Below the pieces are notes generated by a model. That model made no database searches. It was not told the DNA's origin and was given only the letters and a program-made list of their open reading frames with translations. From NCBI GenBank assembly GCA_040954595.2, contig CM082583.2, positions 9,995,656-10,059,655 on the forward strand: a stretch of 64,000 nt of DNA, given 5' to 3'. Shown piece after piece: positions 1,276 to 39,081 of the stretch. Every line of letters starts with the position of its first letter. Position 1 is the stretch's first letter. Position numbers and translations under genes: made by a program. Origin of the DNA: Balanoglossus misakiensis. Its lineage: Eukaryota > Animalia > Hemichordata.

Positions 1276-4200
1276 ATTGCACCCGCTGGCGTTGAGATAC
1301 AGAGTAACGACAACAACAGTGAAAAGGATGACGAATCCATAGTGGGAGATAAACGAGGTATGCACGACCTTTGACCTTTCTTCATGAGTTTTTGCCTTGG
1401 ACTACTCGTTTTAGTCCGGTCCCCAGTCACATTTATCTGCGCTTTAGCAGTTGCAATGGTGGGGGGGGGGATATCAGATTATGCTGTTAGGCATAGAGTG
1501 CAACAAACTCGGTTATAAATGAAGCTTATCGATAGCTGATGAATGCTTATAAACAAGTGTTTTCAGAATTAAATCTTTCCAGATTGAACACCGTATACCG
1601 CAAAGTCGACTTAATGTCGTGTTTTTCGAGTTAACCAGAAATTTGCCATCCCCCTTTTTGCCCACAGTGGGTTTTCACGTACGGATGTTAACCGACGAGG
1701 ACACGGAGAAACCGGTGCCTTGCTGTCCGTACAAGCGTTGCTGCGCCTGCTGCAGACTCTGCTGCGTCTGCAACCGGAAGTGCTTCAGGGCCTGGAAGAG
1801 GGTGCAGAGTTCCGTCTACAACATCATCATGGATCCCCTGGTCGACGTCTTCATCACGGTCTGCATTTTGATCAACACTCTCTTCCTCGCCATGGACCAC
1901 CACGGCATCCCACCGCTCTGGAGTGCCATCCTGTTTTATGGCAACTACGTAAGACTATGTTCCCCCTTTTTTGAATGCCTTCATCAAAGATTCTTACCAA
2001 CGTACATTCATACAAACGTACCCGGACCCAAACCTTTGCAACACCTCGATCACAAGCTTAAGCAGCCATGGCCAGACTGCTCGTAAAGAGCGGAATGCGA
2101 ACGTCTTAGAACACTCTGACGAAACACATTATTCAGTTATGTGTACCGCTGTATTCTTGTTGCAGGTCTTCACAGCAATCTTCACCGTGGAATGTACCAT
2201 GAAGATCATGGCGCTGGACGCGGCCTTTTTCAAGAATGGGTGGAACGTTTTCGATCTGTTCATCGTGCTGGTCAGTCTGATGGAGATTCCACTGCAGAAT
2301 GTCAGTGGCTTCTCAGTTCTTCGAGCGTTCCGATTGGTGAGTTCACTTATCGTCCGCATTCCCTATTCGCTAAGTTACGATTGAAATTACATTATACATC
2401 ATGGGTCACTTTCATGACCCCTACGGATTCATACCAACGGAAGTACGAGGATGTTAGGTCATGTAGGGGTTATGAAAATGGCATACGCATTTACAATGTA
2501 GGCATTCGGAGCGACACATGCTTTTTTCTGACTACAGTACGCATCTTGTTCTCTCCGCAGCTGCGTGTGTTCAAACTGGCGCAGTCCTGGGCTACAATGC
2601 GCATGCTCATTTCCATTATCGGCAACACCTTATCATCCATTGGCAACCTCACGGTCATCCTCTTCATCATCATCTACATCTTCGCTGTGATTGGGATGCA
2701 ACTCTTTGGAGATGTTTACGTCATTGAGAATTTCGCGGAGGACGGAGAAGTGCCGAGGTGGAACTTCATCGACTTCTACCACTCGTTCATGATGGTGTTT
2801 CGAATTCTGTGCGGAGAATGGATCGAACCACTGTATGACTGCATGAGGGGGTGTCGGGCCACTGGCAATGGTCTCGAAGGGGCCTGTATCGCCATATTCA
2901 TTATCACCTTGGTTGTTGGCAATTTTATGGTGAGTGAAATGTTACCATATCAAGCTTTCACCATTCCCTTCGCACACCTGTTGCTACTACGTGCATGAAG
3001 TTGCACATCTAACAGCGCCACCCGCCGAAGTTTCATTCCAGTATTTTTGTTTTTATAGGTACTCAATTTGTTTCTGGCGTTGCTGTTGAATTCGTTCGCG
3101 ACCGATTCGCTGAAGGGCAACGGGGAAAATGGACCGGACAGGCTCAAACTAGGAATTCAAAAACTGATTCGGATCGTGACGTGCAGGAAATACCGCAAGG
3201 GCAAAGTGGGCGCCCATCCGAACGAGAAGAAGCCGCTTCCAAGCGAGTCTAAGAAAGACAGCGGGAAGGAAAAGGAAGGTAAAAAATCTGCCCATGAAGA
3301 TAAAGAAGACGAAAACATTTCCCGGATCAGTCTAGGAACGGCGGAAAATGGACTCTCAAGTACCGATAAAGGTTTGTTTTTAAATCATTTGTTGGCATCT
3401 ATACTTCCTTGAGAAAGAAACATGGCAAGTGAAATACTTTTCTCTTTTACACCGCTCATGAATGCACTGTTCATTTTTATTTTAGCAACTGACATTGAAA
3501 TGACTGACTTGGAAAACACCAAGGATTCAAACCAGCCCGATATCATTCCAAACGGAGCGTTGCTAACAGCAGCCAATGGTACTCTGAAGATCGGCAGTAG
3601 CAACAACAGCGTGAGCAGTCGAAATGGCAGTGCCCGCAGCGTCCAGGTATGTTCTGGTGCCCGTGAGTACTGTGGTCGCGCAGCTTAGGTTGTCTTGCAT
3701 GATGCTGAACGTAAACAAAAATAGACCAGTCAAAATAACACCAAGAGACTGAAACATTTGCCCTGTATTCAGTATTTTCTTTCTTCTTGTGTTTTTTTCA
3801 TGAACAGGAAAGACCTGGTAGCGGGAAGGCGCCGTTCCAAACACAGCGAAGTGCCTTCGCGTCGTTCGACACAGCATTGGAAAACAGCAAATCTAAGCAG
3901 GGCGAAAGCGAGCCGGGAGACAAGGGCGAGGAGGACAAGAGCGAGTCTGAAAAGAAGAAGGACGGATCAGACGACGACGGTGAAAAGAAAGACGACGAGA
4001 AGGACGCAATCATCGTGAAAGAGGATCCCGTACAAGACTGCTGCCTGAAGGCCGTCAACAAGTTCTGCGCCACGCGGTGTTGCTGCTCGTGTTGCCGCCA
4101 TTTTGACGACACCGCGTTCGGGAGGAAGTGGAAGATTTTCCGGCGATACGTGTTCAAGCTCATCGAGCACAAGGGCTTCGAAGCCGTCGTGCTCCTCCTC

Positions 4201-7200
4201 ATCTGCGGCAGCAGTTTTGCTCTGGTGAGTATCAGATCACGTGACCAATTGACCGCTCTCACGCATCATGTACAAGCACATCTGGTGTCGATCAAACACC
4301 AAGAGAGGCGCTGTTTGCCCGCCCAACCCTTCCTGCACGAAGTTAAATGGAAAGTGTACGGTCACCCGTGCAAATACTATGGAAAGTTGAGATTTAGCCA
4401 ATCACAAATTTTCGTAGGGTTGCCACGCGAAAAAAATGCTCCACCAAATAGCCATTCGAGTGACTTAGACACAGTGTAACCTTTTAACCATATATATACT
4501 AGTATACATGATTGTACATACGTATATGTTGAGGGAGATTGTATTCCTTTTACGAGTTGCAGCGCTATGTGTTGCAGCTTGAAGAGCAATGTAACTAGTA
4601 TTGCCAAATCTTCTTATTTACAGGTGTTTGAGGACGTTAGGCTAGAATACAACCCAACCATGCAAGCGGTTCTGAAATATCTCAACATATTTTTCGCTGT
4701 CGTGTTCACCATTGAAATGTTATTGAAATGGATTGGCTACGGTTTCGTCAAGTACTACACCAGTTTCTGGTGTTGGTTGGACTTCATCATTGTCTTGGTG
4801 AGTCCCCGCCCGGGTTTGTCATATGCAGATGAAAGCGCCATCTTCTGACATCAATGTTGTGGTTTTGTTTGTTTCGACGGAGAAGTCTGTGTATTGCGTC
4901 ACTAATGTACAGCAAGGCGTTCTGGCCCAGAGTTCGACGACGCTCTTGGTCTGCTGGAGTAAAACCATGCATATTTCTTGGTTTCTTTCTTCCAGGTATC
5001 CAACGTCAGTATAATAGCATCGTCTCTCGGTATGGACGGCCTATCAGCATTTCGGGCTCTGAGAACACTGCGTGCTTTGCGACCACTTCGTGCCATATCA
5101 CGCTGGCAAGGAATGCGGGTAATTATAATACATTCCATGAATCTTAGACTCCAGGTGCTGACGGAATCATCGTTTACTATTTACTGATCGAAAAGTTTCT
5201 CAACATTATCTGCATATATAAGGCAACAGAACTGGATGCTTGCCTTGGTGCAAAATTCAATGGCTGTTGGCATGACGACGTGGGAATAAGGTGCATCCAA
5301 TTCCCCTAACTCGCACAAACTATAAATGGTTCGCTTTTTGTTGCATTCAGATTGTGGTCAACGCACTGGTCCACGCCGTTCCCGCCATCTTCAATGTGTT
5401 GGTCGTCTGCATGGTATTCTGGCTAATCGCCAGCATCATGGGGGTGCAGTTCTTCGGCGGGACTTTCTACAAGTGCCTGGACGACGACGGGGTACAGTAC
5501 AATGCTTCCTTCGTGAACGATAAGGCGGAGTGTTTCCTGAATAATGGCACATGGAAGAACTCTGATATCAACTTTGATAACGTGTTAAATGGGTTACTTG
5601 CTCTCTTCCAAGTGGTACGTGGAACATTTTACTTTTTTTTTCTATTTCACCAAAGTACAAAAAAAGTGTTCCGGGAGTCGCCATTTTCGCTAATTTTCGA
5701 GAGAAAGATATCATGTAACGTCTGCCTAAAAGAAAGGAAAAAAAACTAACTGCGTGATGTATATGTATGAGAGGTTTTCCATGGGACCACGTATCTGTGC
5801 ACGAAAATTAATCATGCCAATTTATAGAATTTGACTAACTTGACCATTGTTTTTGTTGCTAGGCAACGTTTGAGGGCTGGATGGAAGTGATGATAGACAC
5901 TATCGATTCTAGAGGGGTAAGTTGAACACTTCAAAGGAGATCGTCACGTGATTAATATCAATTTATGATTGCTACAACAAGACCCCATTAGCTCGACTTC
6001 AGTCTCCCACTGTCGTCGAGCTAACGACCCATCAGGGAGAGAGACTTTCGCGGATGATTTAGACTTTATGTTTTATTTTATAATTTTTCTCAGGTGGATC
6101 TGCAACCAAGCCGCGAAGCATCCAAATATGCCTACCTCTACTTCTTCGTATTCATTGTCTGCGGCTCCTTCTTCAGTCTTAACTTGTTCATCGGTGTAAT
6201 CATCGACAATTTCAACGTTCTGAAGAAAAAGGTGAGGTGACTTCAATACGAAGTTTTAACATGTGTTAGCTCCCTCTATCGTCTTACAAGCAAATATCAT
6301 GGCAGATCATATTCTGAAACCAAACTGTCGCATATTATCCGATTGCAGTACGAGGGAGACAGTACGCTGGACATGTTTTTGACATCAAACCAAAAGAATT
6401 ACTACCAAACCATGAAACGACTCGGGCAGAAGAAACCATCTAAGCAAATCAAGAGACCAACGGTAAGCGATACCATGGTTACGATAAAGAAATCGAACTA
6501 TATAATTATTAATCCGCTGGGCGAATGGATTGATTGCTGTTCACTGGTGTGTGTGTTGGTTTTTCTCTAACTTTGTCGTCGAAGTTTGCCTTTTGTTTCA
6601 CATTTTGCTCAGCGTCGTCAGTTTTTGCGCTTGCCGATTGCTCAGTGTTTTTTGTCCTGATTTTGCAGTTTGATTTTTGCATGAAATTATCTGCCAATTT
6701 CCCATAACACATCCGTTTTCCTCATCCCAATTTTCCCTGCATGCTTACGTTATTTTGACTTCCGATAATTTTGCAGACTCGTGTAAGTAATCTGTTGTAC
6801 CACGTATTGTTTTCAACGAACAGGTGATTTTTGTCGCCTGCTTTAACACTCATGTAAAGAATATAAGATAGAATATACCGTGCTCAATGTTATTCTGGTA
6901 GCTATAGGTTGCAAATGTTTCCTGTCTGTGCAGGATCTAGGACTTGGCAAGGCAATAACGACACCGCACTTTTTTTTCTCTACGTAAACAGAACAAGGTT
7001 CAGGCGTTTTTCTATGACGTCACCACGAGTAATAAGTTTGAAATTTCCATCGTGTTGATGATCTGTGCAAACATGATTGCCATGGCCGTGGAGCACTACG
7101 GCCAATCAGAAGACATTACCGCCGTGCTGGATGTCCTCAACATCATATTCGTGGCCATATTCGCCTGTGAGTGCATCATGAAGATCATAGGAATGAGGTG

Positions 7201-8852
7201 GCACTACTTTAAGCGGCCTTGGAACGTCTTTGACTTCATCATTGTCCTGCTGTCCATATTAGGTAGGCACATTATCCCGTCATCCGGGTATCTTTGTCAT
7301 CCGCGCACGCCGGGGTGGGGCCCGGTTTCTTGATCGGTTGGCTTCGCCGATGTTTTGGTCCCTACTGTTATCTTATTATAATAGGCAGTTGACTTGAAAA
7401 GCAAAGCTTTCGAACATTATGGGTCAAATTGATCCAATCAGTAGCTTTGTAACATCAGTTTTTTTTATCTTTATTATCTTTTCAGGCATTGTTTTGGATG
7501 ACCTGCTATCAAATGTAGTCATAAGTCCAACGTTGCTTCGTGTCGTCCGCGTCTTCCGTATCGGCCGCGTGCTGCGTCTGGTCAAAGCGGCAAAGGGAAT
7601 CCGCAAACTGCTCTTCGCCTTGGTGATTTCCCTCCCGGCCCTCATCAACATCGGTGCTCTGCTCTTTCTGATCATTTTCATTTACGCCATCTTCGGAATG
7701 AACTTCTTCGGCTACGTCAAGAAAGAGGGCGCCCTCGACGAAATGGTCAATTTCGAGACATTTGGCAACGGCCTGATATTGCTGTTTCGCTTGGCGACGT
7801 CGGCGGGGTGGAACGACGTGCTGGAACCCCTGATGGTACAGCCGCCCAATTGCGACCCGAATTACAGGGGTATGCCCAACGGCAACTGTGGCCAGCCGTT
7901 GTTGGCGGTCCTTTATTTCGTCAGCTTCATCTTTCTGACGTTTCTGATCATCATCAACATGTACATAGCTGTTATTCTTGAGAACTTCACGCAAGCGCAC
8001 GCGCAAGAAGAGGTCGGGATTACCGAAGACGACTTCGACATGTTCTACATTGTGTGGGGTCGCTACGACCCTGTTGCCACACAATTCATCAAGTTCGAAC
8101 AGGTGTCCAAGTTCTGCGACGAACTTGACCCTCCCCTTCGCCTGGCGGCGCCCAACCGAATCAAAGTGACCGGTTTGAATCTCACCCTGTATGAGGGCGA
8201 TCGGGTGCATTGTCTCGACGTGCTGTCGGCGCTGACGAAGCGCGTTCTGGGCGAGGTGGAAGAGTCCGACGACTTTCAACAACTGCAGGAAGAAATGGCC
8301 ATGCGGTTCAACGAGTCGTTCACCATTCGCTCGCAGACGGTCGCCACTGAGACGACTTTGGAAAGAAAGAAGAAGGAAACTGCCATAGTGAAAATTCAGA
8401 AAGCATGGAGGCTTTTTAGACTGAAGCGAGAAATCGGCCGCGCCGCCTCGACGAGATCGAGAAACAGCCAAAGCAGTTTGACCAGCTCGCGCAAGAACTC
8501 GGCCCTGCTGAGCGTTGGCGACAGCAAACTGGTGAATTTAGATAATAGCTTTAACAGTTCGTTCGGTAACACACTGACAGTTCATCCCGAGAAATACGGG
8601 CAGAGCCCGCGCGGGTCCACCCCGTCACTGAACGCAAGCGGCCACAAGAAGCCGCTTCCCAAGATCGATAACACCAACGGCGCCGCGTCGAAGAAAAAAT
8701 CCACGGCCGAAGAAGAGTGGGACGACGTCCCAACAATTGAAGCTTCGGTTCAAATAGTGAACGAGTCGGCGAAAAATGTTAAAGACAGGCCAAAATCAAG
8801 CAAAGCTTTTCAGGAGAGGCCGAAAACTGGCAAAAAGGGCTTAAAGACATGA
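1276..8852 (+). CDS. Nav2: Voltage-gated sodium channel alpha subunit, Nav2 (DSC1/BSC1-like) clade; partial, DI-DII linker to C-terminus, domain I upstream of the window
   Basis: Phase-consistent GT-AG exons: 1276-1357, 1668-1948, 2166-2336, 2561-2929, 3059-3371, 3486-3646, 3808-4224, 4624-4797, 4996-5118, 5351-5614, 5863-5916, 6094-6231, 6349-6462, 6992-7262, 7486-8852 (TGA). S4 sensors: [51 protein letters not shown]. Pore loops: LCGEW (DII), ATFEGW (DIII), ATSAGW (DIV). DIII-IV linker DMFLT. C-terminal EF-hand-like region and IQ motif IQKAWR. Confidence 0.95.
6777..6782 (+). other. Candidate 6-nt cassette microexon (ACTCGT, Thr-Arg) in the Nav2 DIII-DIV linker intron
   Basis: TTTTGCAG|ACTCGT|GTAAGT. 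Consensus acceptor and donor, frame-preserving inside a phase-0 intron, with a pyrimidine/TGC-rich upstream intron. Confidence 0.6.
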
Positions 8853-25004: not shown

Positions 25005-28000
25005 CACATTATGGCACGGCTGGCTGCTCGAACTCGGGAACTCGCAGACGTGCCTATTCGTAACTGGCGTTGCGCCACTTCCCGTAAGGGGTGACTTCAC
25101 GTAAAACTTTCTACTGTTACACGTGTTGTCTCGAGTTGTTCACAATCATGTTACAAATCTAGCGTTGTAAGTGTCCTCTAAGGGGCAGATTAATGCTTGC
25201 GGAAGATCGGGTGATGTCTTGCCGTATGCCGGCACGTGAGGCACCTGACCCCACTCAAGACAAGAATCCGCGGCATTTGCGGCGCACTCAAATACGGGCA
25301 GTCTACCCACCGGTCAGTCGTACTATTGCCGGCATGTTTTCGCAATTCTAACCTCGTTTAGTGTAAACGAACACTGTGAGAAACCACCGCAGTCGCGATT
25401 CATGCCGACGAAATCACTACGCTGTTATGAATTGTGAAGTGGTGTTGTCTTACGCTCTCTGAGTGCGCCATACATATTCTGTGTTTTGACGCGTACTCAT
25501 ATGGCTGACCACACAAGTAAACACAAATATGAAGTCTATTTATAGAAACACCTGGAAGCGAATGCCCACAAGCACCTCCTTCCGCGGAAAAATTTTCAAA
25601 ATGTTCTATAGTATTTTACGCCGCAGAATCAACATGTCTGAAATGTGACCTCCGTCAAAATATTATTGCAATAATCCGCCTTTTAACTGAGAGATTGCCG
25701 TCTGCCAGATAAACAACCGTGGCTTTATCACGAAGTTAAAGATTCGATAAAAACGAGCGCTAAAGATTCGATAAAAACGAGCGCAACTGGCAACGTTCCC
25801 AAACACGCACGGCCTGTTAACGGGTTACATCACAGCTGCTATGTTTTCGACGATCGAGTTCCACGGCGTCGAATATTTTCAAAACAAATGAAGTTAACCA
25901 GATCTGGGCGCTACCATGACGAAAACTGTAAAACGGCATGTGTGAGAGTACGGATTGGTAATACGATACCGAATAAGTATAGAAATGTTTAAAAAGACGA
26001 CTCATTCAACCATTCGGCGCTAGAAATAGCTAGTGTATTTGTAGCGCTCTCACGTAACAAGACACATTCTTAAGATATTAGATTTTTTGGCATTTTAGAA
26101 ACCGCCGCCTTGTAGCTGGTCCGTTGAGTTTCACCTATTTGAAGTCTTTTGGTCACAGACCTACACTCTCTTGACATGTATAGACAAAGCAAGTTATCAA
26201 AATACACACTTGTGGTTTATACACACCACAGCCACTAAACGCCAACCACTCTTGGTTCTCAAAACAGATTAGAAAGTTTAACATACCACAACGACAAAGC
26301 TCTCACAATATAACCTCGGCCGTGTTTCTTGACACCATCATAAAAGAAGCGCTTGTTGACGTTTTTTTTCAAAATGTGGGGCTAGTATTTGTGTCGGTGT
26401 AAGTGCGACTAAGCTGCCGGTAGTAGGTCTTCATTGATAGCCACTATAAACGAGAAGAAAATTGGACGTGAAGTGAATATGCCAAATATGGCGAGCAATT
26501 ATTTGCTCTGACGTTATAACATGTCCCCGAAGGCACAAAAATTAACCAGGCTTGATCTGGTTGCCACTTGATTTGGCTGCGTGTTGGTGTTTACATTTTT
26601 GTTTCTCGTCACAGGAGACTCAGATTTATCTAAGTTCGATATTAGGGGTCAATGTTACACCGCCTTCTCTGAAAGAAGGCGATACAACCGACTTGTTTAC
26701 GTAATATTTGATAGATAAAACCTTTGCAGCGATGAGTGACATTAAACGAATTCGATGTAATTCTGGAAGCGTTCCGTGCGTGGTTTATCTCTTTATTGAA
26801 CTGACACTGGACATGACGACAGAATTGTTATCTTTTATGGCGCAATGAAAATTGACCAGCGTTGGTAGAACTTATCAGGCAATACACTGAAATACGACTT
26901 TGTGAAAGTGCAAATCTCAAAAAGTGTATTACCATTATAGATATCTAACATAAGTCAGAAACAAAATATAATCTCTGATACGAAAATGCTGTAAATGGCA
27001 TACAGGGCAGCTTTAAATGTTGATATCTTTCCGTTTCTCGCAGCTGGGCTGTGTTGGGCCCAAGTGTCCAAGGATGGAAGATGTGTCGGTCTCATGACGT
27101 CCAACGTCAGTCGTGACGAATGCTGTAGCAGCGGGGCGGTCGGCATCGCCTGGTCGAGGCAAGACGTGACGGCCAGCACTCTCTTCAAGTGGACCATCTC
27201 CGAACGGGGCGGACCTGGTGACTGCACCCCATGCCACGGTGAGTCATCGACAGGTGAGTAGTCAAGTGATGGAACCATGGAAACCACGGCCAAGGTGTCG
27301 TAGCGTGCTGCTTCTTTCCTCCACTAGTCAGTTCCTAAAACCACGTCGACCGCATCTTTCTTCCTTTTTTTATAAAAATGTTTTTTTTTTTACTATCTAA
27401 ATCGTCACGGTAGTTTTAAACTAAATCTAGATCTTGTCCTCTTAATAACTCTTTCACCACCACGGTTTGGCACGGTCCCATCATTTTCAGTGGTAAAATT
27501 TTCTCCGTATTTAGTCCCGCACGGGTGAAAGGGTTGAATAAGTATGCATGCCGCACAGCCTGTTGTGGGTACTATGTCCATCCACCGACTACTACAACTG
27601 TATTTACGTACACTACATGATTTTATTGACAAATACAAAGTGAATCTCGCAAGCAGTAATGTTCTAGTAGTGTCCGGAGAAACTGTTCTTTTGTTCATAG
27701 CTCTTTGTGTTGTCCTCATCAGCACTTTCTCGTTTTCTTGATTTCTGTCAGTAGACACTTGCGACGAGGTGGAGTGTGGACCGGGCAAGGAGTGTAAGAT
27801 CAGCAGCAGGGGAAAGCCACGCTGCGTCTGCTCGCCCAACTGCTCGCCTCTTTCGCGTCGAGGCGCAGTGTGCGGTAGCGATGGCAACACTTATCAAAAC
27901 GAGTGTCGCATGAAGAAAGCCAGTTGCAGGCGAGGCATTGATATCCAGGTGGCATACAACGGAGTTTGTCAGAGTACGTACACGCATCAGTTTATATAAT

Positions 28001-28013
28001 GATTCGTGGTGTG

Positions 28014-28081
<68 letters not shown>

Positions 28082-30000
28082 CTGAATACTCCAGTTTTTA
28101 CAACAATTCCTAACGTCACGTGATTTCTATCCGACAGCATCTTCTTGTGACGATGTCGTTTGCAGCGAGGGAAAGAACTGCGTGGTCGACCAAAACAACA
28201 CCCCGCACTGCGTTTCGTGTATGTTGGACTGTCCGTCTCCCGGTCCATTCGACATGGTGTGCGGGGCTAATGGCGTCACGTACGAGAGCCTGTGCCAACT
28301 GAGAGTTGCTACTTGTTTGTTGGGTAGGAGCATCGGCGTAGCGTACAACGGGGAATGTAAAGGTGAGTCCCAGCTTCTTAGACCGTCTGCCAGACACTCG
28401 TTGATGAACTTATTGAAAATTGTTTATCGTTTTAAAGGGAAGGGGTCGTCGCGCCACGTGGGTGTCCCCCTTGAGGCGAATATGTCCTCCCATACCAGCG
28501 CAAACCCCACTGCAGTCGCCACGACTTTTAAACCCGGACAAGCTACGCACTGATTTTAATCAAAGCAGAAACTTATCATTCTCCATAGACATCTGACAGT
28601 ACTGTCTTGTGTTCCCGTTCTGCCAGGTGCCCTGTCGTGCGAAACGCTCAGCTGTGTCCGAGGAAAAGAATGTCTAATTTCAGCAGATGGCGGCACGCCA
28701 AGGTGCGTGGACTGCCAACTGTACGACTGTGCCGACGACATCCCATTCGAAACAGAAGTCTGCGGTACGGACAATCGGACGTACACCAGCTGGTGCGAGA
28801 TGCGACTGAATGCTTGCCACAGGGGAATAATCATAGAAACACAGTATTTTGGAAAATGTCAGGGTAAGTGAACGATTCTTCAATCTGAAGGCTTTCACTG
28901 GCGGGTCTCGTTTGAACGTGGACGAAGAGCCAAGGCTAATTTTGACGGCCTTTTGAGAATAATTCGTTGCACTGATTAACGCCACGTATAACACGCATCT
29001 GTTACGATAGTTTAAAGAAAATGTAGACTATATATACTTGTTTTAACTATTTTTAGGTAAATTCAAACCAGTCTCTCGAAAACACACATGCTGATAACGG
29101 AATGGCCAAAAAAACATAAAACCATTCGGTAAGAACATGCATGCGTGCATGGCTAATTTTTGTGCACGATTTAAGCTCACAGAATGATAAGAAAGCTCAG
29201 CCAGCAGCATGCTATACCTGACCCCCTCCCCCCCCTCTCTCTCTCTCTTCTTTTGTGGACAGAGTTGCAACACCATTAGTGACCGATGGGAACCATCTGT
29301 CACGCGTGCACGGTGACCGTCGGATGGGGCGGCAGACTGTCACTAAAATCATCGCCTGTTTCACCTTCACTCGCGATCGGCGCGCTCTGCATCGTGTTAG
29401 TTTTACAAATGTCCATGCTAGACAATTCAGGCGAACGTCAAGAGTGAAGGACATCCGAAAATTACATAGAAAAACGCGTTTTGCATGCACGTTGCCTTGT
29501 GCCTGCTTAAACGTCATTTTACAAATAATGATGGTTGTCGCGTAAAATGTTCAACAAAAACTCAACTAATACAGTAAAGTTAGTCGCTTGTTGCCATGTA
29601 TGTGCTTACAGATCACTACATGGGGCGAACTGATGGCATCCGTAAACGCTAACGCCATACATGCATGCATAGGAAAATATCATTCACAAGCGAGTGTGGG
29701 TAATACTTCGTTATGTGTAACTGTTCGAATTTTGTGTAACTTTTATGATCAGGTGGCGACAACGAACACGTGTCACTGCCCAACGACACGCAAGAGGCAA
29801 AATCAACGGAGCTCAACTCTGGGGAAGGCGTGATAGAGGAAGGTGCTGTTGACTGGCCGGGCAACAGTGGGTTTAGCGAATACGAGGAAGAAGACTGGCC
29901 ATTCGGCAAGGTGTTTGAGAGTGAATACATTGAGACACTACCTGACAAAATGGTGTACACGTCGCTCGAGGAACTCGAACAATTAATTCGGAACTCGTAA
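19527..30000 (+). CDS. FST: Follistatin, ~400 aa: signal peptide, N-domain, three follistatin (EGF+Kazal) domains, acidic C-terminal tail
   Basis: Exons 19527-19605 (signal peptide MKAVSSSGCCLAMLLVIIAANCTLGQ), 27044-27238 (GLCWAQVSKDGRC...ECC, like vertebrate GNCWLRQAKNGRC), 27755-27973, 28138-28362, 28627-28863 (three FS domains with VCGSDGNTY, VCGANGVTY, VCGTDNRTY), 29753-30000 (acidic tail EYEEEDW, TAA). All introns are phase 1, one domain per exon, as in vertebrate FST. Total 1203 nt. Confidence 0.93.
24840..25002. repeat. GA-rich degenerate microsatellite ending in a pure (GA)n tract, in the long follistatin intron
   Basis: Purine-rich GAGA/GACA repeats with an uninterrupted (AG)n run at ~24971-25001. 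Confidence 0.85.
25737..25784. repeat. Perfect 24-bp tandem duplication
   Basis: TAAAGATTCGATAAAAACGAGCGC twice (25737-25760, 25761-25784). Confidence 0.9.
28015..28080. repeat. (GAT)22 trinucleotide microsatellite in a follistatin intron
   Basis: Uninterrupted GAT repeat inside the intron 27974-28137. It explains the poly-M and poly-I ORFs in the track. Confidence 0.95.
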
Positions 30001-31709: not shown

Positions 31710-31886
31710 CGGCCATAGTCCAAGGCCACTCGCCTTGCAGTAACTATCAGTACCCTCATGCATATGCGCGTTCAGTGCCAGGAGGTTGGCTGCTAGATCC
31801 TTTGCCTATTGGACAGTCACATATTTATGCAAATCATCACGTCATGTTTGCTTTACTTGGCTTCGTTACGTTTGTCCTCATCAGCC

Positions 31887-33210
31887 ATGGCTGCTAAGGG
31901 CGATTTTCTCCAAGACAGGGCCTTAACTTTGAAGATAACCAAACGCCTAGCCGAGGTGATGGACAGTGAAGACTTTCAGAGACAGCACCTCGATGCAGTT
32001 GACCCGACCAAAGGAGATATCGCGAAGTTACGAGAAAGGGTGCGACAACTGCACGGCAGAGTTTTTCAGGGCATCCTTGATGAATTCAATGCCGTCTACA
32101 ACGGAGAGCACATAAACGCAGTGCATAAGTACATTCTCCGCGCGTATGCCGATGACCATGAGGTGAGTTGGTCGCGTAATAATTTCATTGGAGCTATAAA
32201 TAGAGACAATCGGCCGGGGGGGAGGGGGTAACAGCCCCAATCATGAGCCACCTTCTTTCGAAGCGGATAGTTTCTAATTTCACAATTTATTGCGCTTGTC
32301 TTTCAGATTCAAACAGTACTCGCTAAGACTGTCGTTAAAGAGAATGCCACCGATAAAGCCATCGAACTGGGAATACCCGTTCCGGAAATTTCTCTGGTGG
32401 ACGTGGAAACACGACAAGATATTCCCCTGCTGAGTCTCAGCACATCTGTGGGCAAACCACTGGCTTTCATAGCATCTTCGTTATCCTGACCTCCGCTGAG
32501 GGTAAGAGGCACTTTCCAGTCATGAAAGGAGTCGGTTTTTGTGCGTAACCAGGTGCTACCTTCGACCGCCTATATATAAGCACAGACATGTCCATTTGAT
32601 GTGTTTATAACTCTGGTTGTTTTACCATCTTTCTCCTCCAGGCCATTGTTCACAGTGGCTCGCTGAAGAAACTTTATGAAGACTACAAGGACAAAGTGGA
32701 CATCTGTATGGTTTATATGCGGGAAGCTCACGCCAAAGGTTCAAATCGGGAGAGAGGTCCTCACTACAGTATGATTACTCAACATCAGAATTTGGAAGAT
32801 AGAAGCAACGCAGCAAAGTAGGTTGCTAGGGGAACGGTTTTTATTCTACGTACTGAGCACACTGACTCCCCATATAAAATATATTCGCTGAGATCGAAAG
32901 GTTGTTCATCTTCCACTTTAAAAACTGAGCAAGAATACTATAATTCTTTTCTCTGCGCAGGATGCTGATTGAAATGGACCCCGAGTACGAAACCTTCACG
33001 AGTGACATCCGAGACACCGGCAAAGTGCGCATGGTGCTGGACAACATGGGTAATGGTTTCCATGTCAGTTTCGCTGCCTTGCCGGACAGGGTTGTCGTGA
33101 TTGAAGACAAGAAACTGGCGTTCCTTGGCGCTCGCATCGACGAGCAAACCGGGCTGATGACAGACGAGCTCCGCTGTTGGCTTGAAGAGCGATTTCCTAT
33201 CAAGGATTAG
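31887..33210 (+). CDS. Divergent iodothyronine deiodinase-like selenoprotein (~298 aa, Sec153) with a soluble N-terminal C10/C12orf57-like domain
   Basis: Exons 31887-32162 (Kozak GCCATGG; an alternative in-frame ATG lies at 31827), 32307-32501, 32642-32817, 32961-33210; total 897 nt. In-frame TGA at 32487-32489 in KPLAFIASSLS-U-PPL (DIO consensus RPLVLNFGSCT-U-PPF). Further DIO motifs: VYMREAH, QHQNLEDRSNAAK, VLDNMGN, FAALPDRVVVI, ELRCWLEE. A SECIS follows downstream. Confidence 0.88.
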
Positions 33211-33317
33211 GAATGGGGTATAAAATAGTGTAGGGTTTTAAAACATGGGGTCAATTCCTTAAAAATAAATTTTAAACTGGATATAGAAGTTGCAATATTT
33301 ATACACACGCTTGATGT

Positions 33318-33400
33318 GGACATGATTGGCAATATGATGACGTTTGCATGTAAATGCGTGTGCCATGCATGACTGAGTGTTGAAACATTGCCACCTGTCC
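33318..33400 (+). promoter_or_regulatory. Eukaryotic SECIS element (type II-like) in the 3'UTR of the deiodinase-like gene
   Basis: ATGA (33337-33340), then 11 nt, AAA (33352-33354), and TGAG (33374-33377). Helix II: GTTTGCATG/CATGCATGAC. Helix I: GGCAAT/ATTGCC, extended by GGACA/TGTCC. Apical mini-stem GC-GTGT-GC. Confidence 0.85.
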
Positions 33401-34075
33401 GACCATCATTATTGGAACGATTAGAACTATTTTAGGACAATATTGTATGTTAGGATGACTTGGCAGTCTGTATATACTCAGTAGACAATGTAGTACACGT
33501 ACTATACGTACCCGTTGTTTTCCAAGTTATCTTAATGGTTGAATTACATTCTATATTCTCCCATTGTGCAACGAATACTACTCATTTTGTTAAAATTTGA
33601 ATCGTATGCAATTATCCCAAAATATTTTCAATCATGAGTGTAAGAAAATCGTGCATTTGGTGTCAGTGAGCAAATTTTGTACAATGGAATGTATTCATAA
33701 TTGTTGTTGTCTAATGATGCTAATACCAGCTAGTCAAATATAAAGTGTACAATAAAGTGCGTGTAGACAAAAAACACTTTCAGTGTTTGAATTTAGGCAA
33801 CGGTGCAGGGAACACTCTCGCTGAACACGTAGTCAAGAGAAGATATACATTCTCGGCAAACTACAAAGTGCGGGCCTAGGTTTTGACCGGGGTTTGATTA
33901 TGGCATGCACCCCGGAGTCCCATCTTCTCCCGCCAAGGTCTTGCTCTCCGAAAAGTAGCAGGGAGACCGTCGTCGAGCCAACGACCAGTACCTTGACGAC
34001 GATGCCTCAGTGGTTAGGCCCAACCTAAGAAAGCGCCCTCAACGTTGACACGAAATTGAACTCCAAAGATCCAAG

Positions 34076-35551
34076 ATGGCCTCTCAGCTTTCAGCTTCTG
34101 TCCGAAGTTGTTCCAGTCTTTTACGTTCTGTTAACCCATGCAGGTAAGTGCAGATTATCTGTTGAGATGTAATTATCGAATATGGCCTGTTTGTTTCTTA
34201 CATGGGGAAATATAATGATAATCAATGCAATATTTAAGTAAAACTGCACGGTAATAATATGACAACCCGTGGCCTCGACCACAGGCACAGCCTGACACAG
34301 GCTAGGCACTCGTACGTTGACCCATGTATGTAGTGTAGTGTACCAGATTATCTCAAGATTTCGATGATATAGAACTCTCTAACATATATTTTGTTATTCC
34401 AAATAGGACACTATTTGTTTCAAGTGCACGCTGTGTGGAAGAAAATGTCGAAGCTAAGGCATTAGAAGAGGTGAAGGACACCGTACCAGTAAGTACATTT
34501 GCCTTTTCCCTACAGACCGGTCTGCTTGGGCAACCGACCATTTCCAATGTTTCTGAATATGACTCATATTTTTTTAAAGGTCGACATGACTCCAGTGTCT
34601 GTGATATCTGGCATTCCAGAGGAACACATCAAAACCAGAACAGCCAGGATTTTTGTGCCAGCCATGAACGCTATGCAGTCGGGCAGCAACAACACACACA
34701 AGTGGGCCATTGAGTTTGAAACCAGAGAGAGATGGGAAAACCCCCTGATGGGATGGTCATCAACGTAAGTTTGCTGAGAGCGGGTCATGTCGGGTCAGGT
34801 CATGTCATCTTGCTAAACAGTGTTTCACCTTGGAAAACTTCTGCCAGGATTGTGCAGTAATTTTACGGGGTCCCCTTCCAAAGCTGTTAATGTTAGTGGA
34901 TAGCAGCAAGGCTACCAGAGCTCCCAAACTATTCATATAAGTGCTGGTGGTCTAAAAGTCTAAGCAAAAACATCACCAACTTTTTTTTGCTTATGAAATA
35001 GTGAATAGGTGATGTTGGGTTGAAAGAGTGTTTTCCTGGAAAAAGTGAAATTCAGCATTGGCAATAATAGACGTACATACTTTCCAACAGGAGTAAAGAA
35101 AAGCCCATGTTCTTGCTGTGCTTAAAACTTGCTCATTTTATCTTTTCTCCGTTCCTTTCCTCTAGAGCTGACCCTCTATCAAATACTACGGTAAAATTTA
35201 ACACCAAAGAAGCCGCCATCCGCTTTGCTGAAAAACATGGTAAGGAATGTAAACTAGAACATATATTAACCCTTTCACCCCCAGTTCCCTCTTTAGAGGT
35301 CCAACCTTACCATAGAAAACAATGGGTTTGGACTGAACCATGGTGGTGCAAGGGTTAAATTTCTTGTATGATTGTCATGTCATTTGACTTTGTGTCAGTC
35401 AAAATGTGTGCAATAGTGTGACAAAGATGTATATTGTGTTCCCACAGGGTGGAGGTATGAAGTGGTGGAAAAACAAACACCTAAACCGAGAGCAAAGTCA
35501 TACGGAGCGAACTTCTCCTGGGACAAGAGAACAAGAACCCCATCCAAATAA
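34076..35551 (+). CDS. NDUFS4: NADH:ubiquinone oxidoreductase subunit S4 (18 kDa), ~170 aa
   Basis: Exons 34076-34143 (Ser/Arg-rich transit peptide), 34407-34488, 34580-34764, 35166-35239, 35448-35551; total 513 nt. Motifs: [58 protein letters not shown]. Confidence 0.96.
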
Positions 35552-37677
35552 TCTGTTAAATAGAAAAATAGTTAGAGACTTTGAATGTGTTTGGTAAAAT
35601 TCTGTATTTCATGTGACCAGTGTTACAATTAGTGAGTGGTTTTTGTTTGCTTTTGGACAGTTGAAGTCTTCTGCGGCTTGTTATAAGCTTTTAGAAGACT
35701 CCCTGTGTTGTGACATCATTGCACATGCACTCCTTGTGTGCTCTGGGATTGGTAGACAGAAGCTGTCATGGCCATCCGTAGAATTCAGTTCATCCTGAAT
35801 TTCATAGAATCCCTAGCTGTAGAGCATGGCACAAGGCAAATCTTGGGGAATGGTCTTACCATTACTACACCTGGATTGTGCTAATCTTACTTGTAAATAA
35901 AGTGATTATCAAGCTTGGAAATAACTGGGACATACTTATTGGCAGTTAGACTTGAGACTTTCATCATCATGTGGGCAGCCTGATGTAGGAATGCTAATGT
36001 ACCAAGACGTGAAGTCAGTGTGCAGAAATAACTAGCAAGGAGATATCTGAGCGAGTACAGTATTTAATTTATTCAGCAATGAAACTAAAATTTGTCCAAT
36101 TTCTCCAAATCTGTTATTAAGTAGCAAGTCTTATTTGTTTCTCTCAAGTTACATACAAGATGGCTGTGCACATATTTTGTGGAGTTCAAGTGCATGTTCT
36201 CGTTTGGCTCTGAGGTGACATCTGAGTGACCTAGTCAACAAGAAACATCAAAACATGTAATGCAAGGTGCTGAAGATTCTCAAAAGACTTGATATCTAAA
36301 GTTGCCACAAATACACATGTAGTACAAAATGTGCTTTAGAAAGCATCCATACAAAACACTGATTTAAGAAGATTTAAAATTCAGCCATAGATATAATTCT
36401 ATACATGGAACAGTTACAGTAAATAAAACTCAATTCAGAATGACAATTTGGACAACAATAATTATTCTTAGGACAGGCAATTTACAAGTACTTAAATTAA
36501 AATTATAAATATAAAGAAGTCTTCAAAATAAATAACTTTCAAAAAATCAAAATTTACAAAAAATGCAATTTAAAAAAATAGTTGCTTTGATGTTATAAAT
36601 GGGTGGATTGTCGCATGAACTCAGTTCAGAACATACAAACAAAATCAAAATTAACAAAGTTGGTGATAAACAGGTGAATGTGCTTTCATTCATATAAAAG
36701 CATGCAGGGAATGTTTAGGGACGGTGACAGCTTCCATTTTGCCCAAAACGGGTCTTTGCCTGACCCTAACCAGCTCCATGGTAGGCATTCAGAATATACT
36801 AACCAAAAATACGAAGTGACTACAATATAAAACACCTTGAAAAAAATCATTTTACAAAACTAGACATTTCAATACAAAATATACAGTTCAAGCCACTATT
36901 CAGCGCAAAAAAATTAACATTAAATCAAAATGACTAATTGACATTTTACCACACTTTAAGTATCTCTTGATTATTACAATCAGCACACAACTATTTTAGA
37001 GGAAAATGATAAAAAAATTCTGTTTTGATTCAGCTTGGTAATTAAAGTTACTGTTGTGATAATTTAGAATATTATAATATGGTCTGTGGATGATAATGTA
37101 CACAACACAGCTCTTAATGAATGTCAATTGTTCTAGATGATTCTCAAAAATCTACAAAAAACCTAGTTTAAAGATATTCCCCATTGCAAGATACTTTCAA
37201 TGTCATCATGGTTTGAGGGTGCACTCTGTGATACCCTCATCTTGCGCAGTACCTTGTGTCTACCCTATGTGATAAAAATCTTCAGACACGTACAAAAACT
37301 ATTTCAACATCTTGGAAAAATCCTACTTCCTGTAAAAGTTGTATATAATCATACAAATATTACAAATTCAAAAGTGATGAACTTTTTTAAGATTCTGCCT
37401 TCACTGATCACGTATTCGTCAAATTTTGTTTACTTCAAACTTGGTGTTTAATTTTGAACTTGGCAAGCTGGATGGAATATTGGTGTCTCTGTATACATCA
37501 ATAGATGAATTCTAAGTTTGTTATAAAATGGCAAAACATGCAACATTACTACACAAAATGTATTTTCCATGTTGGCCATTTTGGGCACAACATGGACCAG
37601 TCTATGATAAACATGCTGCAGAAGCGTTACAATGATTTCCCCATTTAACCATCTTGACAAAAAAAAAACACGCACTG

Positions 37678-39081
37678 CTATATCCTGCCTTCGCCATCTT
37701 TGATTTCTATTCCTTGAAGGAAATACACCAGTCTCTGAAATCCGCCTCTGGCTCCCTCGACATCGGAGAATGAACACGGGTGAATCAGCCATTTTCTACC
37801 GACAGCCTTCTCTTCCAATGCCAAGTCCTTAATGAGCTGTTAAGAAAAACAAGAGGCATGGCATTATGGTTCCTTCAGTTGACACTTAATCAAGTACAAG
37901 ATGCTAATAATACTTGTGTGTTTATTCACCTGAGCTACATTCCTGGCACTGGCCTGGTCTTGGTAGCTAGCAAGAACCAGTAGCGGTAAGCCCTTCAACG
38001 ACGCATGTCCCAGGATTTTGTGCAACTCGGAGGTTACAACCTGCAGGTCCTCATCTGAACAGGAGCTGTCCATCACAAAGACCACACCCTCTGTGTTGTC
38101 ATAGTAACGGTCCCAAAACTGGCGTACATTTTCATTACCTGGAATATATTCATTTATAAAGAACTGTCAGTGTATCTAGAATGTGGATACTTATTTATGC
38201 TTCCTTTGTGTGACAGGGTTCTGGAGCTGAAGACTTCTGGCCAAAATCCAATGTTTGTTTTTTGTATAAAAGGTTTCAAACTCAAGGCATCTCATTTATA
38301 CTGGTACATATACCTTACCTCCTATTTCTTTGACATTAAGCATTGCATCTTTAAAAGACAATGCTTTGATGTTGAAACCTAAAAGAAAACAAAACATACA
38401 AGTGTCTAATGTGAATATCAGAATTTTGAAATTGTCACCAATGTAAACACCCAGTAAAAAGTAGAAGAGGGGTTTCTCACGAATAACACTTTTTTCCTCC
38501 CTTGCCCTAAATCATGCACTTTAGAAACACACTTGCTTTCTCTTACCCTGAGTTGGTTGAATATCATCAGGCTTCTCGCCACACAGCAACGTCAACAAAG
38601 TAGTTTTGCCAGCCTTCGTTAGACCTAAACATATCACATTAAACTCTTGTTTGGGGGCAGGGAGTGGCTTGCAGCAAAGTTTACGATATAACTGTTGAGA
38701 GATGGAAGCATGTGGGATAGTTAAATACCATGATTTAATCTTCACAGTTATTAAGCACAGTTTGTTTTGTGGATGTTAAAACATTTGTCAACTCAGAAGA
38801 TGATTAAGTCCATCTTTAAATTGCCCTGATGGCTTGATTGACATCAACACCTGTGTATTACATGTGAAAGTCACATGGGAGACTTTTGACTATGCAACAC
38901 GTATTTTGACAGGTAAACTCGAGATTATAAGATCTACAAGTGCAGGATACTGTACTGTGTACATGACATTGACAGGCTTTCATTTAGTGACAGGCTTTCG
39001 TTATTTAGTTGGACTCACTGTAAAGCAGGCTATTCTGCAAACGCCACAACACATGCCAAGGTATTCTCCAATTCCTGGCAT
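37678..39081 (-). CDS. ARL15: ADP-ribosylation factor-like GTPase 15, ~211 aa
   Basis: Minus-strand exons 39081-39019, 38691-38547, 38378-38319, 38138-37930, 37836-37678; total 636 nt. LCCKPLPAPKQEFNVICLGLTKAGKTTLL (P-loop with the ARL15-type LCCK motif), GFNIKAL...LNVKEIGG, WDRYY...GVVFVMDS, GRKWLIHPCS. Confidence 0.93.

Follow-up and report, generated by a model that had tools for sequence, protein, structure and literature searches.

The question raised by this locus is whether a selenoprotein gene of the acorn worm Balanoglossus misakiensis joins a deiodinase-type catalytic core to a soluble domain related to the C10 (C12orf57) family. The gene lies on the forward strand of the stretch of contig CM082583.2 that was analysed (64,000 nucleotides, hereafter the window). 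The original prediction, made from the letters of the window, described a four-exon gene with an in-frame TGA and a deiodinase-type C-terminal part, and the frame, the splice sites and the matches to the Pfam family T4_deiodinase (PF00837) agree with it. This intact four-exon gene is real beyond reasonable doubt. Its product is best read, with some reserve, as an anchor-free selenocysteine enzyme of the deiodinase family with an N-terminal distant C10 relative, acting as a cytosolic reductive dehalogenase. The gene is a new variant within a known enzyme family and not a new kind of system. Its elements, including a hairpin resembling a selenocysteine insertion sequence (SECIS) in the 3' untranslated region (UTR), are as follows.

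31887..32162, + strand: exon 1, soluble helical domain of 92 residues with a likely distant relationship to C10 (C12orf57)
32307..32501, + strand: exon 2, 195 nucleotides; active-site motif, strands from the N-terminal side of the catalytic core and, probably, the final helix of the C10-like domain
32642..32817, + strand: exon 3, deiodinase-specific insertion; Tyr182, Glu185, His187, His205 and Arg211; PF00837 match
32961..33210, + strand: exon 4, remaining thioredoxin-fold core and stop codon; PF00837 match
32487..32489, + strand: in-frame TGA, codon 153, likely selenocysteine; context SSLS-TGA-PP; the Ptychodera flava protein P0006 ends at the same place
33327..33393, + strand: SECIS-like hairpin in the 3' UTR; ATGA core at 33337, unpaired AAA 11 nucleotides later, GA at 33375, 7-bp lower helix and 9-bp upper helix
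31827..31886, + strand: optional 20-codon leader from an in-frame ATG; hydropathy 1.34; probably not used

Spliced together, the four exons form a single frame of 897 nucleotides, giving 298 codons and a TAG stop. The three introns (144, 140 and 143 nucleotides) are each of the GT-AG type, the TGA of codon 153 is the sole internal stop and no frameshift is present. Only one copy of the gene was found within the window. Exon 3 alone matched T4_deiodinase with 33 bits (E 4.8e-08), above the cut-off of 27 bits, and exon 4 alone fell marginally below it with 26.7 bits (E 4.1e-06); the relatives described below scored 51-56 bits. Exon 2 alone gave no match in Pfam or the PDB.

The architecture recurs in the acorn worm Ptychodera flava. 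With exon 4 as query, two of 38 candidates were P. flava proteins of 64% and 60% identity, and exon by exon the P. flava proteins are 47-68% identical to the window gene. In the cluster mate P0003, a homologue of exon 1 (47% identity) precedes the part encoded by exons 3 and 4, and P0005 likewise has exon 1 and exons 3-4 in a single chain. A profile of two exon-1 sequences, searched against 1.84 billion representatives, returned four matches: P0005 and P0006 from P. flava, P0004 from another record and a spurious repeat, which was dropped. In P0006, exon 1 continues into exon 2 with 37 of 57 exon-2 residues identical and the chain ends precisely at the TGA of the window, so that the predicted link between exons 1 and 2 is borne out in one protein. 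P0001 begins two residues ahead of the exon 2/3 junction. The splice junctions are mirrored in the P. flava models. Exon 1 is 40-54% identical to its four relatives; each of these has it in full and starts at the methionine that corresponds to 31887. This evidence consists of predicted gene models, whose start codons are also predictions.

At least four distinct copies of the gene occur in the P. flava records, on a 44-Mb sequence, which is consistent with the clustered deiodinase duplications that PMC3473315 reports in other invertebrates. The entries XP_070570157-60, XP_070571174, XP_070571175 and XP_070569326 share the gene family and architecture of the window gene. They are named 'deiodinase-like' or 'uncharacterized' in RefSeq, each model seen is truncated at the UGA or skips it, and none of the P. 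flava records examined bears a C10 label. The architecture is unlabelled in the records examined because gene callers break such genes at UGA and Pfam misses the N-terminal domain. Since exon 2 is 195 nucleotides long, its skipping preserves the frame and drops the selenocysteine; the models P0002 and P0003 skip it, either as a genuine enzyme-dead isoform or because the gene caller dodged the stop. Judged by the collections that were searched, the family appears narrow, but this does not imply its absence elsewhere.

The TGA is very probably read as selenocysteine. The corresponding active-site motif of Dio3 is SCTU as given in PMC7506546. The SECIS-like pattern, which was drawn up after the element had been seen, fitted once only in the 64 kb on both strands; when the 590 nucleotides downstream of the stop were shuffled 1000 times, it fitted 5 of the shuffled sequences. 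Several properties of the hairpin speak against a SECIS element. Rfam gave no match to it, its fold lies 4.6 kcal/mol above the minimum and so is not the lowest-energy fold, and the folding energy resembles that of shuffles. Its 3' core, UGAG, has one base off the consensus KGAW stated in PMC3753652. An AATAAA at 33264 stands ahead of the hairpin, and polyadenylation there would remove the hairpin from the transcript. A second AATAAA is seen at 33751, behind the hairpin.

Vertebrate deiodinases have a transmembrane region at the N-terminus, as described in PMC8143656. Over the first 100 residues, the 19-residue Kyte-Doolittle mean reaches at most 0.18 for the window protein and 0.36-0.45 for the four relatives; a transmembrane stretch is absent, as had been claimed for exon 1. 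The in-frame ATG at 31827, which had been noted as adding a mildly hydrophobic 20-residue leader, is present. Its context is weak and that of 31887 is strong; it overlaps an octamer-like word and adjoins an inverted CCAAT word, both of which resemble promoter elements. The weak context and this overlap make its use improbable. The 17-codon frame at 31844-31897, which starts with an out-of-frame ATG, overlaps the main start codon. The protein is likely to be cytosolic.

The relation of exon 1 to C10 was examined with a reference set for which a short degenerate motif gave 68 metagenome loci, 11 of them being chosen by eye. All 11 reference frames match Pfam P_C10 (PF14974), 10 above the cut-off. 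The 5-member family alignment against the 11 C10 rows gave an hhalign probability of 50.5% (P 1.6e-4, 75 columns) in the register of the original prediction, and none of 139 decoys reached this score. The gapless profile score peaked at the predicted offset among 92 (z 6.1), with a value of -0.08 against -0.52 for the next best offset; no column shuffle (0/1000), decoy (0/139) or reversed decoy (0/139) reached it. When the eight columns of the retrieval motif were masked, the same peak was obtained with z 5.0 and was reached by 2 of 1000 shuffles, and the four canonical C10 rows gave z 5.3 unmasked (0/1000 shuffles). Taken singly, the five members were matched or beaten by 1, 0, 1, 11 and 0 of 229,855 decoy frames, and the window peptide alone by one; these frames came from 974 partly redundant decoy proteins, and the C10 columns had been trimmed to the register already found.

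A feature search of the ESM Atlas (7.7 million clusters) with exon 1, blind to the C10 hypothesis, placed P_C10 clusters at ranks 1-3 with scores of 0.84, 0.83 and 0.82. The search had 193 of 256 features in common, and all ten best named matches fell in one family or clan. The result carries weight because the C10 family was named before the search. Against six C10-family proteins the window peptide shows 8-12 identities over 78-86 positions (10-14%) in the predicted register, and the gapless alignment spans about 85 residues with common anchors at the helix 2 cap, the helix 3 end and the acidic DDxE turn. The C10 similarity had been placed at 32016-32309; the peptide quoted for it comprises 32016-32162 and one further codon, the first of exon 2. 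The register held and the extent proved longer, covering residues 7-92, and the fifth helix probably falls at the beginning of exon 2. C12orf57 is predicted to be a five-helix bundle in PMC13478489. Helices lie at 5-19, 22-35, 39-61, 67-81 and 85-98 in the C10 model (predicted local distance difference test, pLDDT, 89) and at 11-25, 28-35, 45-55, 57-71 and 76-90 in the exon-1 model, where the first three starts (11, 28, 45 against 5, 22, 39) keep a constant offset of 6.

A number of results weigh against the C10 relationship. P_C10 matches none of the five family members, and exon 1 alone has no significant Pfam match. With a hidden Markov model (HMM) of C10, exon 1 did not rank among the best 8 of 529 window frames; the HMM of the exon-1 family found its best C10 protein at E 1.3; HMMER was thus non-significant both ways, and a P_C10 assignment by Pfam or HMMER was not obtained. 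Single-sequence comparisons of the exon-1 family with the divergent C10 protein L056 gave no match. Without the two divergent C10 rows the hhalign probability fell to 4.4% (P 0.009, 67 columns), and one of 139 decoys reached the score for the canonical rows only. These decoys were profile windows from 41 bacterial families of mixed fold and not selected helical bundles. The masked score for the four canonical rows was z 4.3, reached by 15 of 1000 shuffles. The top ESM Atlas score of 0.84 lies below the 0.9 mark, so that the tool grades it as a lead, and the recognition value, at 1934, is also low. The model of exon 1 has little confidence (pLDDT 60, predicted template modelling score 0.39) and its helix 4 is displaced by three residues from the C10 register. 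The domain is called C10-like and not a Pfam member because the identity is only 10-14% and the comparison is at sequence level. On these comparisons the relationship is remote, and common ancestry of exon 1 with C10 is nonetheless highly likely.

The intron positions bear on the origin of the module. An apparent acceptor at residue 15/16 and a donor at 74/75 were found by eye in 6 of 12 C10 loci; exon 1 is uninterrupted there, and both positions are missing also from 4 of the 12. The lack of these introns argues against derivation by simple, recent shuffling of intact exons from an animal C10 gene; it would suit a retrocopy, or a C10-like source that is older or microbial. The ESM Atlas C10 clusters include Myxococcota members. 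Other C10 contexts were also seen: in a single frame of L056 (2-973) a divergent C10-like domain follows an alpha/beta hydrolase domain, which makes another C10-enzyme fusion, and in L046 (28-897) a C10 domain follows a long stretch rich in Lys, Glu and Ala. Because C10 domains are also fused to other unrelated partners such as that of L056, the fusion is a modest clue to C10 function.

The catalytic core was compared with Dio3 (4TR3). The relay and anchor residues Ser167, Thr169, Tyr197, Glu200, His202, His219 and Arg225 correspond to Ser150, Ser152, Tyr182, Glu185, His187, His205 and Arg211. The insertion residues were mapped through the alignment of P0001 to Dio3 (E 1.4e-06). Ser167, Cys168 and Thr169 were placed by their spacing from the TGA, and the fact that no tool alignment covers this part counts against the mapping. 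A change of Dio3 Thr169 to Ser retains part of the activity according to PMC7506546. The equivalents of Cys168 and Cys239 are gone, Leu151 and Val238 standing there, and P0003 is without any cysteine. Trp207 of the omega-loop, which PMC7506546 describes as conserved across all Dio types, is also gone, as no Trp occurs before residue 289.

In the proposed mechanism, the SECIS-like hairpin would recode the TGA to selenocysteine, and the selenolate would abstract a halogen from an aromatic ring by analogy with Dio1-3. The oxidised selenium would have to be re-reduced by an outside thiol, since no equivalent of Cys168 or Cys239 is present. The loss of Trp207 and the changed loop suggest that thyroxine may not be the substrate; a different haloaromatic, alone or in addition to thyroxine, is likely. 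Enteropneusts accumulate halogenated aromatics as reported in PMC6315191, which makes these compounds candidate substrates. Dehalogenase activity is reasonably likely. The C10-like bundle may do the non-catalytic job of the lost N-terminus by holding the active assembly together or by docking the enzyme on a partner. PMC11592359 describes Dio as active as a dimer which the N-terminus stabilises, and a leucine zipper as able to replace the N-terminus to give a soluble active enzyme; C12orf57 binds CAMK4 (PMC11838199) and is predicted to bind ANKRD50 (PMC13478489). The need of the Dio N-terminus for dimers, its replacement by a zipper and the protein-binding character of C12orf57 together point to a scaffold or docking role as the likeliest one, for which the chances are about even.

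The exon-1 domain might instead be an unrelated amphipathic helical bundle, its likeness to C10 arising from common helix periodicity. Such a reading would account for the non-significant Pfam and HMMER searches and the low identity, the hhalign P value of 1.6e-4 would fail a Pfam-wide correction, and half the C10 loci have two intron positions that are missing from exon 1. It is quite unlikely, as the C10 family and the register were named ahead of testing, the blind search ranked C10 first, no adjacent helical offset comes near the predicted one, and the match runs gapless through its three anchors. The TGA as a true stop, leaving a decaying gene, a product of only 152 residues or the exon-2-skipping enzyme-dead isoform, is extremely unlikely even though exon 2 can be skipped in frame, two P. 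flava models do so and the SECIS evidence is imperfect: coding conservation of 60-68% persists past the TGA, the stop falls exactly at the catalytic position in two species, and the 298 codons hold no other stop or frameshift.

The nature and place of the enzyme allow two further readings. If the ATG at 31827 were used, the 20-residue leader could be a signal peptide, giving a secreted enzyme or one in the lumen of the endoplasmic reticulum. The in-frame ATG, the mildly hydrophobic core and the small residues ahead of the second Met agree with this; the weak ATG context, the promoter-like words and the lack of the leader in four relatives, whose starts are predictions too, make it very unlikely. 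A general thiol peroxidase or reductase in place of a dehalogenase is unlikely as well. The thioredoxin/peroxiredoxin fold of deiodinases described in PMC11592359, the loss of the conserved Trp207 (PMC7506546) and the weak Dio3 similarity of P0001 are in its favour, but the deiodinase-specific insertion with its Tyr, Glu, His, His and Arg is retained and no conserved resolving cysteine is seen.

Read as an anchor-free deiodinase relative, the protein shares with Dio1-3 (PF00837; 4TR3 for Dio3, 9H48 for Dio2) the S-x-x-U-P-P site, the deiodinase-specific insertion, the relay residues, the in-frame UGA and, possibly, a 3' SECIS element. It differs in having the C10-like bundle instead of the N-terminal transmembrane helix, in the missing Cys168, Cys239 and Trp207 equivalents, and, compared with Dio3, in having about 13 extra residues ahead of the third core strand. 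With C10/C12orf57/GRCC10 (PF14974) it likely has the five-helix layout in common, along with the gapless alignment and the anchor positions. Unlike free-standing C10, the domain is fused to an enzyme, is below Pfam detection at its 10-14% identity, lacks the two animal-type introns and has a shorter fifth helix, in the next exon. A Mucoromycota cluster of 52 proteins in the ESM Atlas also has a deiodinase core behind a soluble domain and no anchor by Pfam labels, but its partner is ubiquitin-like. Among the ESM Atlas rows for P0005 (clusters of at least 50 members), deiodinase clusters and this fungal fusion were listed and none was shown with P_C10 plus T4_deiodinase. No publication describing a C10-deiodinase fusion was found, in agreement with the original prediction, which knew of none. 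In the window, the gene sits between a follistatin gene and NDUFS4.

2100-8850, + strand: voltage-gated channel alpha-type gene (Ion_trans, GPHH)
about 27000-30000, + strand: follistatin (FST_N, FOLN, Kazal)
34076-35600, + strand: NDUFS4
37700-38200, - strand: Arf-like GTPase

The C10 (C12orf57) family is linked to Temtamy syndrome, and no solved structure of it was present among the PDB representatives searched. A C10-like domain on an enzyme with measurable output would, if true, allow a direct assay of the role of the C10 fold. Full-length deiodinases are described in PMC11592359 as membrane proteins of poorly understood dimer architecture, the solved cores being mostly monomeric and the Dio3 core without significant activity. 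A naturally soluble full-length deiodinase would be a tractable target for a substrate-bound structure, and the gene is of interest to deiodinase and C10 specialists. For the animal itself, a wider proposal is doubtful but conceivable: a tandemly expanded set of cytosolic selenoenzymes restricted to the acorn-worm lineage, each combining a bundle of the C10 fold with a divergent deiodinase core, might strip or recycle bromine and iodine from the accumulated halogenated aromatics. For the family, the C10 bundle would, if the reading is true, be the first soluble domain known in nature to take the place of the deiodinase membrane anchor, and the protein an easily purified full-length deiodinase.
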